From NCBI GenBank assembly GCA_947477885.1, contig CANJUD010000003.1, positions 215,774-279,773 of the forward strand: a DNA stretch of 64,000 bases, read 5' to 3'. A program made the translations under genes and the position numbers. Of the stretch, positions 2,024 through 39,745 are shown in pieces. Positions within the stretch are counted from its first letter, which is position 1; the number at the start of each line of letters is the position of its first letter. Origin of the DNA: Bacteroidota bacterium. Its GTDB lineage: Bacteria; Bacteroidota; Bacteroidia; UKL13-3. The notes beneath the pieces were generated by a model. The model saw only the letters and a list, made by a program, of their open reading frames with translations. It was not told the origin of the DNA and ran no database searches.

Positions 2024-2980
2024 TTACTTCAACTCCAAAAGCCCCTGCCCAAGGATATATCCTTCACAATACAATTCAAATTTATATTTACCTTTCTTGA
2101 AATCACCGGCACGTTTGTAATAGATTGAAATTATTTCACTGTTATTGGTGAAATCGATTGATTGTTTGGTAGTATATATACTTTCTTGCCCGGCATATTT
2201 AAAGGTGCCTGAGCCAGCTTGGTCATCTTTGATGGCTACACCATCAGGTCCAAATATTTTAACATATACATCTTTGCGGTTGCGGTCGGCCACTGCATTG
2301 CGGGCAAATCCGAATGAAATTTTTAGCTGTTCGGCTTTTGATGCCTTGGTAGTTTCTTGTTCTTTCCCACCACTCCTTATTCTAATTGCTAAGGCTGATA
2401 TGTTAACAGCCTCTAATATTTTTGCATTTTCTAAATCGCTTATTGCTTTACGTTTCTCGCCATCTAATTTATCCTTATCAGTTTCTAAAGTTTTAACGGA
2501 TGCTTTTAGTTCTGTATTTTCTTTTTTAACTTCATTCAATTCAACCAGTTTTTCGTCGAGTTCTTTCTTAGTCTTTTCGTAATAATACTTAAACTTATCA
2601 TACATCTCCATAGCACGTTCATAATCTTTCTTGCTCAAGTTTTTCGAATTCAATAAGCCTTGAATTTCGTTGGCCATATTATATAGCTCTGAGTTCTTTT
2701 TATCAATAACCCCATTTAATGAATCATTGATTCCACGGTAAGTTTCTAATTCTGCTTTAGCATTTGAAAGTAGTTTTTCCAAATCTGCACGTTCTTTTTT
2801 CACATCCATCAAATTGCTTTGCTCGGTTTCCAAAGCTTTGTCAGTATGAAGATACATATATAACAAATAGCCGTTCATCCCCAATAGAAACAGGATGATT
2901 AAGATATATACCAATCTATTAGACTCCTTTTTACGTTCGGGTCTAAAGTTGGCTGGACTTGGTTGTTGGTTATTTTCCAT
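2024..2980 (-). CDS. hypothetical single-pass membrane protein with long coiled-coil region
   Basis: N-terminal hydrophobic segment LVYILIILFLLGMNGYLLYMYL, then K/E-rich heptad-like region (~180 aa), C-terminal globular domain. Confidence 0.55.
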   Translation of the reverse strand: MENNQQPSPANFRPERKKESNRLVYILIILFLLGMNGYLLYMYLHTDKALETEQSNLMDVKKERADLEKLLSNAKAELETYRGINDSLNGVIDKKNSELYNMANEIQGLLNSKNLSKKDYERAMEMYDKFKYYYEKTKKELDEKLVELNEVKKENTELKASVKTLETDKDKLDGEKRKAISDLENAKILEAVNISALAIRIRSGGKEQETTKASKAEQLKISFGFARNAVADRNRKDVYVKIFGPDGVAIKDDQAGSGTFKYAGQESIYTTKQSIDFTNNSEIISIYYKRAGDFKKGKYKFELYCEGYILGQGLLELK

Positions 2981-3102
2981 AATACGTGTTATATAATACT
3001 TAGATATGCAAAATTAAACGATTTGTTCATATTAAAAACAAAAGCTATTGTTATTACGTGGACATCCTAGTCTGTTGTGTCTGAAAAAATGCTCATTGTG
3101 GG

Positions 3103-3248
3103 AATTACGAATTTTCAATTACGAATTACGAATAGTGAGCATCAAGTGGTTGGTCATGGTTCGACTACGCTCACAACCACAAACACAGGCAGTCGCATAA
3201 CCATCTAGCATCAGCCAATTCGTAATTGAAAATTCGTAATTCGTAATT
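3103..3248. repeat. MITE-like palindromic element: ~31-bp terminal inverted repeats built from AATTACGAA units around a ~80-bp core containing GGTTCGACTACGCTCAC
   Basis: Left arm aattacgaattttcaattacgaattacgaat (3103-3133), right arm aattcgtaattgaaaattcgtaattcgtaatt (3217-3248); core motif tggttcgac(t/a)(c/a)cgctcac recurs at 15455 and 30876; partial copy of arm at 12203-12245. Confidence 0.6.
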
Positions 3249-3250
3249 GA

Positions 3251-4732
3251 TTAGTCCATTGCTTTCAACTCGCTCACCAATTTGGTAAGGGCTGACTTAG
3301 CATCGCCGAATAGCATGGAGTTTTTTGGATTATAGAACAGTTCGTTTTCAATACCTGCATAACCCGCATTCATACTACGTTTGTTCACTATAATATTCTT
3401 GGCATTCTCTACATCGAGAATAGGCATACCAAATATGGGAGAAGCGGGATCATTATGAGCAGCAGGATTTACCACATCATTTGCTCCTACAACCAGTACA
3501 ACATCTGTGTTTGAAAATTCAGGATTGATTTCTTCCATCTCAACCAACTTGTCATACGACACATTTGATTCGGCCAATAGTACATTCATATGACCCGGCA
3601 TACGACCAGCAACTGGGTGTATTGCGTATTTAACTTCCACACCGCGTTCTTCTAATATAGTCTCCAATTCATGTATTACATGTTGTGCTTGAGCTACTGC
3701 CAATCCATATCCAGGAACTATAATAACTTTCTTTGAATAATTCATTAAAACAGCAGCATCTGTTATAGAAATTTCTTTGATATTCCCTGTAAGTTCACGA
3801 CCTGCAGCAGCACCCTTACTGCCAGCACCAAATGCTCCAAATATAACATTGCTTAGTGGGCGGTTCATTGCTTTACACATAACCAAAGTTAATAATGTTC
3901 CAGCAGAACCAACTAATATTCCACCGGTTAACATAGCTTTGTTATTATACATAAATCCACCGCACGCTGCGGCTAGTCCAGTAAATGAGTTTAGTAAAGA
4001 TATTACAACGGGCATATCTGCACCACCGATTGGTAGTACGAACATGACACCATATAATAATGCAGCTGCAAATAATAAATACACATGCATGTTACCTTCT
4101 ACATTTCCGTTCACAATTAAGAATGCATATACAAACAAACCAAGCATTAATATATTATTGGTAATATTATATTGTGGCAAACGGATAGGTTTGTTTAAAG
4201 TGCCATTTAATTTAGCCCAAGCTATAATAGAACCTGCAAAAGAAACAGAACCAATGACAAGACCTGCCATTATCATTGCAAGTTTTGCAGTATGACTCAT
4301 GCCACCTTGGTGTGCCATATTTTTTAACATTTCAACTAGGCCAGATAAATCCATTCCTCCTTCTGGTGTAACAGGCATAACTTGATGCCCCATGTGTTGA
4401 AATTCAATCAATGAAATTAATGCCGCACAAGCACCACCCATACCATTAAATATAGAAACGAGTTCGGGCATTTTTGTCATTTGTACTTTTTTGGCAGTCA
4501 TCCAACCCGCAATGGTTCCAAGACCTATAGCAGATAGAATTAAAGTATATATTATTGGTTGAACTTTTTCATCGTGGATGATGATAGTTCCGAGTATGGC
4601 CAAGGTCATTCCGAAGCATGCAATAAGATTCCCTTTTCTAGCAGTTGCTGGATGGGATAACATTTTAAGTCCTATTACGAAAGTAACAGATGCAACTAAG
4701 TAAATGATGTCGAGTAAATATTGTGTGTTCAT
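3251..4732 (-). CDS. pntB: NAD(P) transhydrogenase subunit beta
   Basis: 493 aa polytopic N-terminal membrane domain plus C-terminal NADP(H)-binding dIII domain (GYGLAVAQAQH...VVGANDVVNPAA...); typical PntB N-terminus MNTQYLLDIIYLVASV. Confidence 0.9.
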   Translation of the reverse strand: MNTQYLLDIIYLVASVTFVIGLKMLSHPATARKGNLIACFGMTLAILGTIIIHDEKVQPIIYTLILSAIGLGTIAGWMTAKKVQMTKMPELVSIFNGMGGACAALISLIEFQHMGHQVMPVTPEGGMDLSGLVEMLKNMAHQGGMSHTAKLAMIMAGLVIGSVSFAGSIIAWAKLNGTLNKPIRLPQYNITNNILMLGLFVYAFLIVNGNVEGNMHVYLLFAAALLYGVMFVLPIGGADMPVVISLLNSFTGLAAACGGFMYNNKAMLTGGILVGSAGTLLTLVMCKAMNRPLSNVIFGAFGAGSKGAAAGRELTGNIKEISITDAAVLMNYSKKVIIVPGYGLAVAQAQHVIHELETILEERGVEVKYAIHPVAGRMPGHMNVLLAESNVSYDKLVEMEEINPEFSNTDVVLVVGANDVVNPAAHNDPASPIFGMPILDVENAKNIIVNKRSMNAGYAGIENELFYNPKNSMLFGDAKSALTKLVSELKAMD

Positions 4733-4740
4733 GGTGTAAT

Positions 4741-5197
4741 TTCTAAATTCTAAATTCTAATTTCTAAATTTATTTTGTTTGATTATTGAGTGCTTTTTTA
4801 TATATAGCTCCAAAAATGGTTTGAATTTCTTGGGCTTCTTTAATTAATTCAAGTCTTGATTGATCGACAGTTGTATTTTCGATATCCAACTATTTCAACC
4901 ATAGTATCGACTCTTTCGTTTCTTTTTTACATATTCTAATTTTCATCAAAAAATCCTTTTCACCTAATTTCTCGTTGGCCTCTATATAATTTGCAGCTAC
5001 TGAACCAGACGATCTTACTAGTTGTTTTACATCTTCTTTATTCCAAATATTTACTTCTATCTTCTTTACAAAAGCTCTAATGCTTTTAGCAAAATAAAAT
5101 GTCCTTTCTTCTAAATTATATATCTTTTTATTTTCGCTTTCAATTTGAGAATGTAGCATATCGAAAATTAGAATTTAGATATTAGAATTTAGAATTT
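4741..5197. mobile_element. Inverted-repeat-flanked insertion carrying a four-helix-bundle (TIGR02436-like, formerly 23S rRNA IVS) gene
   Basis: ~30-bp imperfect inverted repeats made of TTCTAAA heptamers: ttctaaattctaaattctaatttctaaattt (4741-4771) and aaaattagaatttagatattagaatttagaattt (5162-5195) bracket the single gene exactly. Confidence 0.5.
4770..5159 (-). pseudogene. four-helix-bundle protein gene interrupted by an in-frame TAG (4890-4892); ORF track shows only the N-terminal 89 aa
   Basis: 89-aa product (…NLEERTFYFAKSIRAFVKKI…RSSGSVAANYIEANEKLGEKDFLMKIRICKKETKESILWLK) matches the first three helices of the family. Reading through the TAG in the same frame adds LDIENTTVDQSRLELIKEAQEIQTIFGAIYKKALNNQTK, the expected fourth helix, ending at TAA 4770-4772. 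Confidence 0.55.
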
Positions 5198-5201
5198 TTT
5201 G

Positions 5202-5510
5202 CTATTTTTTCTTCTTAAACATTTCCAACATTCTGTCAGTAACAACGAAACCTCCCACAACATTTAGTGTTCCAAGCACTACAGCTAAAAACCCTAAAAC
5301 TAGTGAAAGAATGTTGTCAGGGTCAGTATGTAACATTACATATATAGCACCAATAATTACAACACCATGTATCGCGTTAGCGCCTGACATCAATGGCGTG
5401 TGCAGCACTGCGGGCACTTTTCCTATTACTTCTATACCCACAAATACCATGAGTATAACGATGTAAAACATTTGTATGTTGTTACCGATAAAATTTATTA
5501 CTGAATTCAT
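5202..5510 (-). CDS. pntA: NAD(P) transhydrogenase subunit alpha part 2 (small membrane subunit)
   Basis: 102 aa, three predicted TM helices, typical PntAB sequence …IVILMVFVGIEVIGKVPAVLHTPLMSGANAIHGVV…; sits between pntAA and pntB. Confidence 0.85.
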   Translation of the reverse strand: MNSVINFIGNNIQMFYIVILMVFVGIEVIGKVPAVLHTPLMSGANAIHGVVIIGAIYVMLHTDPDNILSLVLGFLAVVLGTLNVVGGFVVTDRMLEMFKKKK

Positions 5511-5513
5511 ATT

Positions 5514-5903
5514 TTATTTATTTTCTATTTTATTAATTAAGTCTTCTATATCTCTTCTAAGTTTTGGAAAATCATTTTTAATAGTATAATAAACCGTTGA
5601 ATAATCGACTCCAAAATATTCATGGATTAATATATTTCTTATGCCTACTATTATTCTCCAATCTATCTGTTTATTTTCTTGTTTTAATTCTTCTGTTATT
5701 CTGGCTGATGCTTCTCCTATGTTCTCTATTAATTTTTGCAAGGCCAACTTAAGTATGTAGTCTTTTAGAAACTCTTCTTCTGCTAATTCTCCAAGAATAT
5801 CAATAGAATCTTGGGAGTACTGAAGAATATGTCTAAGTCTTGCTATATCACCCAGTTTTCCTTTCATATATAAGTCTTTTTTCTTCGTGAATATATGGTG
5901 CAA
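5514..5903 (-). CDS. hepT: HepT-like (DUF86) toxin of HepT/MNT type II TA system
   Basis: Rx4HxY motif (RNILIHEY) near C-terminus; ~115-129 aa; overlaps upstream MNT gene (alternative start at 5867 gives 20-nt overlap). Confidence 0.75.
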   Translation of the reverse strand: MHHIFTKKKDLYMKGKLGDIARLRHILQYSQDSIDILGELAEEEFLKDYILKLALQKLIENIGEASARITEELKQENKQIDWRIIVGIRNILIHEYFGVDYSTVYYTIKNDFPKLRRDIEDLINKIENK

Positions 5904-6150
5904 TATATTTTGACAATCCTTTATCTGACAATAAATCTATTTCTAATTTCAAATCATTAGAAAGTTTTAATTTCATATTTGCAAAATCAAAAAGAGATAC
6001 TTTAGCTAACTCATCCAACTCGACCAAAACATCTAAATCACTTCCAGCCACTTCTTCGTTTCGTGCGTACGAACCAAACACATAAGCCTTTTTCACGGGC
6101 TGTGTTGCAAAAAAGTTCTGTAATTTCAATTGCTGCTCTGCTGTTATCAT
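5848..6150 (-). CDS. mntA: MNT-family nucleotidyltransferase antitoxin
   Basis: GSx10DxD motif (FGSYARNEEVAGSDLDVLVE); ~100 aa; likely start MITAEQQ at 6148-6150, 2 nt after pntAA stop; upstream extension in ORF track overlaps pntAA and is rejected. Confidence 0.75.
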   Translation of the reverse strand: MITAEQQLKLQNFFATQPVKKAYVFGSYARNEEVAGSDLDVLVELDELAKVSLFDFANMKLKLSNDLKLEIDLLSDKGLSKYIAPYIHEEKRLIYERKTG

Positions 6151-10764: not shown

Positions 10765-10878
10765 GACATTGCACGAATCCGTCATGCTGAACTTGTTTCA
10801 GCATCCATAGGAAATGGAAGAGATGCTGAAATAAATTCAGCATGACTTAGCGGACAGCATGACGCGGCGGGCAGCATG
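10765..10878. repeat. Cluster of CAGCATG-based hairpins (two tandem stem-loops tgctgaa/ttcagca)
   Basis: gtcatgctgaacttgtttcagcatcc … gatgctgaaataaattcagcatgac … gacagcatgacgcggcgggcagcatgtcg. Confidence 0.45.
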
Positions 10879-23022: not shown

Positions 23023-23079
23023 GTGGTTTATTTTTCTTGCTTGCAAACTTAGCTAAAATTATGCCGAAAAAAAAACTCA

Positions 23080-23170
23080 AGTAGTCAGTGGTCAGTAAAC
23101 AGTGGTCAGTGCCATTCGGCGTCAGTATGCAGGCGTCAGCTACTGTTTACTGTTTACTGACCACTAGCCC
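23080..23170. repeat. Heptamer-based palindromic repeat element (TAGTCAG/TGGTCAG/TAAACAG arms around ggcgtcag core)
   Basis: gtagtcagtggtcagtaaacagtggtcagtgccattcggcgtcagtatgcaggcgtcagctactgtttactgtttactgaccactag: arms are reverse complements. Confidence 0.6.
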
Positions 23171-23197
23171 GTATTTTTGCACATCAATAACACGACC

Positions 23198-28029: not shown

Positions 28030-28043
28030 GCAAAGTTAATATA

Positions 28044-28074
28044 GGATTCGGGATTCAGGATTCAGGATTCGGGG
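28044..28074. repeat. Tandem heptamer array GGATTCG-GGATTCA-GGATTCA-GGATTCG
   Basis: Directly read; reverse-complement heptamers CCCGAAT x3 occur at 31048-31070. Confidence 0.6.
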
Positions 28075-28119: not shown

Positions 28120-28290
28120 TTTAATATTTCGTCCCTACGGGACTTATGCCGTGTTGGACGTTTCTCGTTTCTACCAATATTTCGTCCCGATGGGACTTTA
28201 ATCGACATATACATAGTCCCATCGGGACGAAATATTGGTAGAATTAAGATTTGAGTTAGTATTAAAGTCCTGTAGGGACGCAATATTGAA
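28120..28290. repeat. Nested palindromic element: four ~25-bp units AATATTTCGTCCC-NN-GGGACT (2 forward, 2 inverted)
   Basis: units at ~28124, ~28176 (forward) and ~28213, ~28263 (reverse complement); unit 2 vs 3 nearly perfect 28-bp inverted repeat separated by 14 nt; each unit internally palindromic (gtccc..gggac). Confidence 0.65.
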
Positions 28291-29047: not shown

Positions 29048-29200
29048 GCCGCGAAAATAATGGTTAATTATTAATTATTAATGGTTAATGGTTAATGCCA
29101 TGCGGCAGTGTTGCGTTGCGACATTAACCATTAACCATTTATAATTCATCATTTATAATTCATCATTTATCCTTCATCATTAACCATTATTTTTGCCGCC
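29046..29200. repeat. Heptamer-based palindromic element (GGTTAAT arms around gccatgcggcag core; TTCATCA/TTTATAA units)
   Basis: ggttaattattaattattaatggttaatggttaatgccatgcggcagtgttgcgttgcgacattaaccattaaccat…; core gccatgcggcag also at 30850; ggcattaaccattaaccat also at 51869. Confidence 0.6.
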
Positions 29201-30805: not shown

Positions 30806-31072
30806 GATTCTGGACTCAGAACTCAGTCCCGAATAAGATTCGGAAGGGGCCATGCGGCAGATAGAAGTCAGTCATGGTTCGACTCCGCTCACCACGGCAT
30901 CCGTAATCAGGCGTCAGCCAAATCGTAAATCGTAAATCGTAAATCTTGCGTCAGCCCCCAAATCCCGAGGGATGACACTGTTATATAAGAGGAAAAGCAA
31001 AAAACAAAAACCCCAACGGGGTGATATTATATAAACTGGCGTCAGCCCCGAATCCCGAATCCCGAATCCCAT
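30805..31072. repeat. Composite intergenic repeat region: GGATTCT/GGACTCA units, cccgaataagattcgg hairpin, gccatgcggcag and ggttcgactccgctcacca cores, (AAATCGT)x4, (CCCGAAT)x3
   Basis: All read directly; shares separate modules with elements at 3103, 7950, 15455, 28044, 29075. Confidence 0.6.
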
Positions 31073-31107
31073 TTCCTCCCTTATATTTGCTTCAAATAAA
31101 TACCACC

Positions 31108-39663: not shown

Positions 39664-39745
39664 AGTAGTCAGTAAACAGTGGTCAGTAATCAGTGGCTGA
39701 CGCCGTATGGCACTGACTACTGTTTACTGACCACTGTTTACTAAA
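39664..39745. repeat. Heptamer-based palindromic repeat element (AGTCAGT/AAACAGT/GGTCAGT arms; gctgacgccgtatggcactgac core)
   Basis: agtcagtaaacagtggtcagtaatcagtggctgacgccgtatggcactgactactgtttactgaccactgtttact. Confidence 0.6.

Follow-up and report, generated by a model that had tools for sequence, protein, structure and literature searches.

A horizontally exchanged four-helix-bundle gene between complementary heptamer arms in a transhydrogenase operon, a probable and decaying relative of rRNA intervening sequences

A 64,000-nucleotide stretch of DNA from a Bacteroidota bacterium (contig CANJUD010000003.1 of assembly GCA_947477885.1; the whole stretch is called the window here) contains a short minus-strand gene that is cut off by an in-frame TAG codon and is enclosed by inverted repeats made of tandem heptamers. 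This locus raises two questions, namely what kind of unit such a bracketed gene represents, and whether its TAG is a mutation, a read-through site or a sequencing error. We consider it probable (roughly 0.7) that positions 4738-5197 (minus strand) are one copy of a ~460-nt horizontally exchanged element, in which a four-helix-bundle (FHB) gene of the S23p/Avd family lies between heptamer arms, of the type of an intervening sequence (IVS) in an mRNA spacer, and that this copy is decaying. The narrower joint claim, that a discrete FHB cassette has been exchanged and that the TAG is a true nonsense mutation, is very likely to be correct.

A truncated four-helix-bundle gene between complementary arms

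The open reading frame (ORF; 5159..4890, minus strand) begins with the ATG at 5159 and reaches its stop TAG (4892-4890) after 89 codons, and the same frame runs a further 39 codons past the TAG (LDIENTTVDQSRLELIKEAQEIQTIFGAIYKKALNNQTK) up to a TAA (4772-4770). Against the NCBIfam profile TIGR02436 ("four helix bundle protein"), the 89-aa product matched profile positions 3-73 of 109 with 48.9 bits, and the fused 129-aa sequence matched positions 3-107 with 59.4 bits (cut-off of 24). The fused sequence also scored above the cut-off of Pfam PF05635 (23S_rRNA_IVP; 38.6 bits versus 33.8), while the 39-aa tail alone is too short for a profile score. By sequence, the fused protein is a member of TIGR02436/PF05635 (S23p) and the translated 89-aa product is a partial one. 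We modeled the intact protein of a sister lineage (P0001; 129 aa, 94% identical to the fused protein of the window) with AlphaFold2, which predicted four helices (residues 16-32, 41-62, 67-90 and 96-128) at a mean pLDDT of 90. The top structural matches of this model in the PDB were 2RLD, a member of the S23 ribosomal protein family from Bacteroides thetaiotaomicron with five chains (TM-score of 0.82 on the target), 2GSC and Avd (4DWL); further matches were to Avd, the protein of diversity-generating retroelements (DGRs), in the cryo-electron microscopy entries 8UBE and 8UB7. The TAG is positioned at the end of helix 3, and helix 4 is removed.

The arms are tandem TTCTAAA-type heptamers that form an inverted repeat of 34 nt with 85% complementarity (4738-4771 and 5164-5197), or of 26 nt with 96% complementarity when the register is shifted by one heptamer. 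Within the 64-kb window, exact and one-mismatch copies of a two-unit probe (TTCTAAATTCTAA) were confined to both arms; with up to two mismatches allowed, we found 14 matches versus 6.6 expected, a number reached in none of 100 shuffles. When joined by a short loop, the arms fold with −25.7 kcal/mol (z = −7.9), and folding of the whole 496-nt region yields the same outer stem. As in an IVS, the complementary termini can form an extended stem with the ORF in its loop, and this holds likewise in relatives. The original prediction, made from the sequence alone, had described an ORF that ends at the TAG and encodes only about three helices, 39 further in-frame codons for the expected last helix, and TTCTAAA inverted repeats that bracket the gene. 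All of this agrees with our results (Table 1), including the alignment to TIGR02436, in which the tail carries the match from 48.9 to 59.4 bits. Two other candidates were rejected: a terminator hairpin, given a loop of 392 nt, and an integron cassette, given arms at both ends and no attC or integrase pattern.

In the sister lineage (L001, L002 and L004; labeled as a Chitinophagaceae metagenome-assembled genome, MAG), the same cassette occupies the same site and its codon 90 reads TTG (Leu), a single T-to-A difference from the window, and Leu is nearly invariant at this codon across the family. A sequencing error at the TAG is ruled out because the exact 89-aa truncated product was called on at least 24 contigs (38 collection blocks in the index); the window locus is also 100% identical to a contig of assembly GCA_947475885.1. 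These sequence comparisons indicate a recent, fixed TTG-to-TAG nonsense mutation. Among the options originally listed for this codon, recent nonsense mutation is therefore favored by the sister TTG and the nearly invariant Leu, sequencing error falls away, and read-through, for which we found nothing in support, is weighed below. Window and sister differ by 11 synonymous and 3 non-synonymous changes ahead of the TAG, a ratio that suggests purifying selection on the FHB gene of the sister lineages, and by 2 and 4 such changes beyond it. The 3' arm of the window carries three substitutions relative to the sister that weaken pairing, and the perfect 27-bp stem of the sister (−33.5 kcal/mol) is thereby reduced to one of 17 and 8 bp around a mismatch (−25.7 kcal/mol). 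With a nonsense TAG and three mismatching 3'-arm substitutions, the window copy is starting to decay and is, as a particular copy, an ordinary decaying pseudogene.

Table 1 Positions of the cassette, its host operon and other period-7 tracts in the window.
Feature	Position	Strand	Basis or remark
Upstream (5') arm	5164..5197	-	~5 heptamers on the gene strand: AAATTCT AAATTCT AATATCT AAATTCT AATTTTC
Truncated FHB ORF, 89 codons, helices 1-3	4893..5159	-	profile matches; AlphaFold2 model of sister
In-frame TAG, codon 90	4890..4892	-	sister has TTG (Leu)
Untranslated remnant: 39 helix-4 codons and original TAA (4770-4772)	4770..4889	-	profile match to position 107/109
Downstream (3') arm	4738..4771	-	heptamers complementary to 5' arm; overlaps TAA
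pntAA	7256..6153	-
MNT (NTP_transf_2) and HepT toxin-antitoxin pair	6150..5514	-
pntAB, small membrane subunit of NAD(P) transhydrogenase (PNTB_4TM)	5202..5510	-	upstream host cistron
pntB, transhydrogenase beta subunit	3251..4732	-	downstream host cistron
Period-7 tracts	17-47, 23067-23178, 28042-28074, 29048-29199, 30917-30949, 31043-31076, 39664-39742		

Relatives across phyla and exchange of the cassette

To place this locus among its relatives, we used 80 GTDB-genome loci encoding close relatives of the window FHB protein (76 of them scorable for stems), which come from Bacteroidota, Verrucomicrobiota, Planctomycetota, Lentisphaerae, Kiritimatiellales, several Patescibacteria and other groups, and a second set of the 80 nearest metagenomic PntAB relatives (67-83% identity). 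The relatives are MAG or metagenome contigs throughout. ORF starts and arm ends were fixed by simple rules, repeats were scored ungapped so that register ambiguity is possible, and the shuffle-based statistics given here are inflated by relatedness among loci.

A bracketing complementary segment (first scoring, threshold of at least 14) was found in 55 of the 76 loci, and the best scores of nearly all shuffled-flank controls did not exceed this threshold. A second scoring with a threshold of at least 20 left 34 strong stems, for which the median distance was 7 nt from the upstream stop to the 5' arm and 12 nt from the 3' arm to the next start, and the median element length was 486 nt versus ~460 nt in the window. 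Arms had a median length of ~34 nt, or about five units. Between loci the 5' arm follows a consensus of approximately AAATYCN AAATYCN AATATCN AAATYCN AAACAAA, then ATG, and the 3' arm is the complement. The position N (partly Y) is uniform within one element and complementary in the partner arm, and is T, G or C between elements. The dominant unit matched the complement of the other arm in 27 of 38 loci (permuted partners: mean 7.2, maximum 15 in 1000 trials). Among 23 anchored mini-stems, two-sided changes occurred at 18 of 34 pairs and made up 97 cells versus 46 ± 5 in shuffles (0 of 500 reached 97), with a covariation score of 0.288 versus at most 0.098 for slid partners; since these stems were preselected for at least 22 of 34 matches with six anchor pairs, their percentage of paired positions is inflated, and the two-sided changes are unaffected. 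Unit type agreed with the nearest neighbor of the FHB protein in 39 of 44 loci, which suggests that the arms travel with the gene and not with the site. The two neighboring genes are oriented like the FHB gene in 53 loci and are both opposed to it in 4. Among cultured Bacteroidota, a Flavobacterium columnare strain has the gene between gmk and nadD (PMC5524665). Between samples encoding an identical FHB protein, the 3' heptamer array measured 258 versus 194 nt.

The window copy sits in the operon of a proton-translocating NAD(P) transhydrogenase, whose gene order on the minus strand is pntAA, MNT-HepT toxin-antitoxin pair, pntAB, cassette and pntB. The 5' arm starts 4 nt past the pntAB stop codon and ends 4 nt ahead of the FHB ATG, and the 3' arm ends ~6 nt before the pntB ATG. 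There is no terminator-like site inside the cassette, and a scan restricted to sigma-70 promoters found 20 versus 18.8 expected. The gap between pntAB and pntB measures −14 to ~+85 nt in most members of the PntAB set, with a 1-nt overlap in the closest relatives, and about 10 of the 80 hold an FHB gene at this junction that is 43-59% identical to that of the window. The pnt junction is also the location of 17 of the 80 best genomic FHB relatives, and likewise of P0046 and P0023. One metagenomic locus (L108) has an intact FHB gene between pntAA and pntAB, and heptamer arms around a weak FHB remnant between pntAB and pntB (TIGR02436 E = 0.012, below the cut-off).

We then compared divergence inside and outside the arms. 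Third-codon identity between the window and L001 was 0.908 for the FHB gene, and 0.736, 0.641 and 0.680 for pntAA, pntAB and pntB (Fisher p = 1.3e-8 for the difference between FHB and pnt), and the block of low divergence stops at the arms. Because the cassette is far less diverged from its sister than the flanking pnt genes are, it appears to have been exchanged on its own. The sequences thus indicate a common ancestor of the window and L001 cassettes that is more recent than that of the host genes, with the exchange confined to the cassette. In a third close lineage (L005) the pnt genes are equally distant (third-codon identity of ~0.7 for all pairs) and the FHB protein is just 76% identical. 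As a check for independent insertion from another cassette lineage, the G-type pnt-site cassettes L022 and L043 had equidistant protein identities of 0.63-0.65. The idea of a discrete mobilized cassette in the original prediction is borne out by the mostly empty site, the arm-bounded low divergence and the homologous arms in many phyla; our analysis adds the pnt operon context, the kinship to 23S rRNA intervening sequences and the finding that target-site duplications are not present.

The other internal junction of the operon, pntAA|pntAB, is filled by the MNT-HepT pair, and is 10-150 nt long in most PntAB relatives. The DNA of this pair is 46-54% identical between window and sister, versus 86-90% for the flanking pnt genes, so this module has been replaced or evolves very fast. 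In L005 (3385-3598), the 3' arm has grown into a long array of 14-nt period (TAGAATTTAGATAT...) that continues to the end of the L005 sequence. This array shows the instability of such repeats, and contigs may break there.

Possible roles of the arms and alternative readings

For the IVS-type reading, we propose that the element would be transcribed together with the pnt operon, and that the arms would pair in the transcript as a ~25-bp stem that loops the ORF out. Such a stem would bring the pntAB stop and the pntB start within ~10 nt of its base, which could make the insertion tolerable to the host, and by analogy with 23S rRNA intervening sequences it might also be a substrate of RNase III. 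That the arms act as an RNA stem, either processed by RNase III or preserving the coupling of the cistrons, is a tentative suggestion by this analogy, to which we give slightly less than even odds.

Several points weigh against the IVS-type reading or parts of it. The element lies outside rRNA and is not an IVS in the strict sense, and RNase III cleavage and the coupling effect are drawn purely from analogy. The window stem is A/U-rich and of modest energy (−25.7 kcal/mol). Stem mismatches contain 53 G:U and 53 A:C, with no excess and hence no RNA-specific signature (a hand count from the mismatch table gave a weak trend of G:U over A:C in the best stems), and array length varies as it does in slipping DNA. 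The complementarity could equally reflect DNA hairpins or one protein that binds both ends. As for movement, no target-site duplication, recombinase or reverse transcriptase was found nearby, and the low divergence of the cassette may reflect a short gene-conversion tract instead of an insertion. The contrast of substitutions before and after the TAG is in the direction of relaxed constraint and is non-significant (Fisher p = 0.12).

The alternative that survives best is that the arms work on DNA, as terminal inverted repeats or single-stranded hairpins for a transposase or recombinase encoded elsewhere, which would make the cassette a non-autonomous element resembling miniature inverted-repeat transposable elements (MITEs) or a hairpin-dependent element. 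The site is filled in some relatives and empty in others, exchange is confined to the cassette and the arms travel with the gene, all of which a DNA role would accommodate, as it would the absence of a G:U excess and the variation of arm-array length within populations that DNA slippage predicts. However, 34 elements show no sign of a target-site duplication (outside the arms, the longest word in common averaged 3.44, versus 3.36 ± 0.14 for permuted partners), there is no transposase in or near the element, and arms that vary freely in length and unit number would be unusual as transposase binding sites. The 53:4 bias of orientation toward host transcription also speaks against it, although the same bias could arise if a gene with no promoter were selected for being expressed. 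In total we regard a DNA role as unlikely, though it may coexist with a role in RNA. Viral contigs scanned for members of this FHB subfamily gave no match, and so no phage vector.

A somewhat more doubtful alternative is that the heptamers are putative binding sites of the cassette's own FHB homopentamer, with about five units per arm, one for each subunit as in the ring-shaped TRAP, by which the protein would control its own translation or mark the RNA. This would fit the arm length of ~34 nt with about five units in a conserved order, the FHB start codon that directly follows the arm in many loci, and the pentameric state of solved relatives (five chains in 2RLD; the homopentamer of Xanthomonas S23p, PMC4990558), as well as the membership of Avd in an RNA-protein complex with reverse transcriptase (8UBE, 8UB7). 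Unit type also tracks the protein clade, but this link is fully confounded by common descent. Such binding is conjectural for any S23p-type protein, the arms of the window persist despite a truncated protein, and heptamer hairpins exist that contain no gene.

With regard to the TAG, read-through or recoding, by which the full-length protein would still be produced, is very improbable. The 39 codons 3' of the TAG contain no stop and continue to match the family profile, but with the cassette only ~6% diverged from its intact sister an open tail is expected by chance and is uninformative. Against read-through, TAG serves as the stop of 3 of 33 long open stretches of the window, the 64-kb window contains no suppressor tRNA, and the changes after the TAG lean toward non-synonymous (4 versus 2), including an Asn-to-Thr change where most relatives have Asn.

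The least tenable alternative, that the arms are no more than generic low-complexity or simple-sequence DNA which happens to lie on both sides of the gene in this genome, can draw on the frequent period-7 tracts and heptamer hairpins of other units in the window and on the intergenic heptamer arrays documented in Bacteroidetes and Cyanobacteria (PMC4679880), but it is set aside, as within 64 kb this unit is found only at the two ends of the gene and homologues in Verrucomicrobiota, Planctomycetota, Lentisphaerae, Patescibacteria and others bear homologous complementary arms. The original prediction would have been undermined had its heptamers proved to be ubiquitous low-complexity sequence; the common heptamer tracts of this genome use other units, and this unit family accompanies the gene in other phyla.

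Going beyond the IVS-type reading of this one locus, we can imagine that FHB cassettes, the S23p-encoding IVSs of 23S and 16S rRNA, and perhaps also the heptamer hairpins of this genome that lack a gene form one widespread, unrecognized class of elements, which settle at points of host transcripts where looping out a stem does no harm, namely the tips of rRNA helices and the junctions between cistrons. In such a scenario the pentameric FHB protein would recognize about five arm units and help the element to spread or persist, perhaps through RNA in the way that Avd acts with reverse transcriptase. This unification is speculative and has little more than an outside chance of being right.

Other heptamer repeats and comparison with known systems

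Period-7 tracts are uniquely enriched in the window, with 6 strict runs versus 0 for periods of 5, 6 and 8-11 and 0 in shuffles. Several of these tracts (Table 1) form hairpins with short GC-rich centers, with units such as AGTGGTC/AGTAAAC and AATGGTT, and many abut GGCGTCAGC, for which there are 11 matches versus 3.7 expected. Just downstream of pntB (3102-3248) is a gene-less hairpin with arms of the heptamer AATTACG and an 89-nt GC-rich center; at the orthologous place, L001 (7912-8190) has the unit ATTTACG and an expanded 3' arm with ~18 copies of AAATCGT. Every unit in the two arms of this hairpin differs between window and sister by the same single base, a change that has spread throughout. 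The GC-rich loops of the gene-less window hairpins are by eye unlike the A/T-rich FHB gene, and we do not claim that they derive from FHB cassettes. The pntAB|pntB spacers of six loci (L099, L117, L120, L128, L090 and L106) contain 75-136 nt of heptamer repeats or hairpins with no gene, and their units are mutually unrelated (e.g., TAGTATG, AATTTGA, AGGTACA and ACTGTTT). The pntAB|pntB junction has been colonized repeatedly by period-7 repeats. The window also holds at least three copies of a ~22-29-nt palindromic repeat at 28123-28288 (AATATTTCGTCCCNNNGGGACT...), including a perfect 29-nt inverted pair, with the appearance of REP (repetitive extragenic palindromic) sequences, and similar small palindromes are nested within the heptamer arms of L164 and L017. 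A further inverted repeat of 25 nt, 92% complementary with a 16-nt loop, is present at 10781-10846 (GTCATGCTGAACTTGTTTCAGCATC / GATGCTGAAATAAATTCAGCATGAC).

These findings bear on the function of the S23p or "23S rRNA IVS protein" family, whose domain has been called functionally uncharacterized (PMC4990558, PMC11270868), and on how bacterial intervening sequences arise and move. The architecture of ORF, stem and heptamers is common at cistron junctions of ordinary operons in many phyla, and the many cassettes form a large comparative data set for this gene family. Operon junctions may be safe harbors for selfish modules, as suggested by the occupation of both internal pnt junctions here.

Among other known systems, the cassette shares the four-helix-bundle fold and superfamily of Avd (4DWL, 8UBE, 8UB7), with just ~10-12% identity. 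Avd functions as a pentamer together with nucleic acid and reverse transcriptase; unlike in a DGR, neither a reverse transcriptase nor a template or variable repeat lies beside the cassette. A DGR was therefore rejected, the neighboring Pfam domains being PNT subunits, NTP_transf_2 and HepT. The cassette resembles MITEs and REPINs in being small, having terminal inverted repeats, encoding no transposase and being present or absent at a site. The absence of a target-site duplication in 34 elements sets it apart from them and from DNA transposons, and it also differs from MITEs and REPINs in its conserved protein gene, the strong sense bias inside operons and arms that are arrays of a variable number of tandem units.

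STRR heptamers are intergenic heptamer repeats of cyanobacteria. The period-7 tracts of the window resemble these STRR-type arrays and the TAACTGA-type arrays of Cyanobacteria and Bacteroidetes (PMC4679880). The TAACTGA repeats are intergenic heptamer direct repeats of Bacteroidetes, Cyanobacteria and Beggiatoaceae with no linked gene, and a term search of the paper found neither "four helix" nor "intervening sequence" (PMC4679880). Like these arrays, the arms have a period of 7, are intergenic, often lie beside starts, are hypervariable in length and are absent from the spacer of close relatives; unlike them, two complementary arrays here bracket one specific gene family.

The closest parallel is the 23S rRNA IVS of Coxiella burnetii (helix 45), a 428-nt element whose loop contains an S23p ORF and whose 28-bp stem is cleaved by RNase III in vitro, with rapid amplification of cDNA ends placing the IVS ends in mid-stem (PMC4990558). 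Two to three tandem GACAGAT heptamers, in a strain-variable number, directly precede its ATG, the ORF is under reductive evolution, IVSs with an S23p ORF are also known from Leptospira and others, and horizontal transfer of IVSs among Leptospira species is cited (PMC4990558). Within a searched literature that includes few subscription journals, the Coxiella paper is the only one to link this gene family to heptameric repeats (PMC4990558). In the same literature we found no description of such a cassette outside rRNA, a coverage that is incomplete and no proof of novelty. The whole window had no Rfam match at the gathering score, and positions 2900-5400 had none at E-values up to 5.

Because the cassette lies between pntAB and pntB, and not in pre-rRNA at 23S helix 9, 25 or 45, and because no rRNA was found near 20 related loci that were checked, it is not a strict IVS. 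Its host is an mRNA cistron junction instead of an rRNA helix, its unit is AAATTCT versus GACAGAT in Coxiella, and purifying selection acts on its FHB gene in the sister lineages. Nonetheless, the two systems have in common a PF05635 gene in the loop of an element of similar length (428 nt in Coxiella, ~460 nt in the window and 486 nt as the median of relatives), terminal inverted repeats that give a stem of ~25-28 bp, and tandem heptamers directly upstream of the ATG in a copy number that varies between strains. In both, the ORF is sense-oriented in the host transcript (for the pnt operon, in a presumed co-transcript) and is prone to decay. Elements of this kind are already known from 23S rRNA, and what appears to be new here is an S23p-type cassette with an IVS-like architecture at mRNA cistron junctions.

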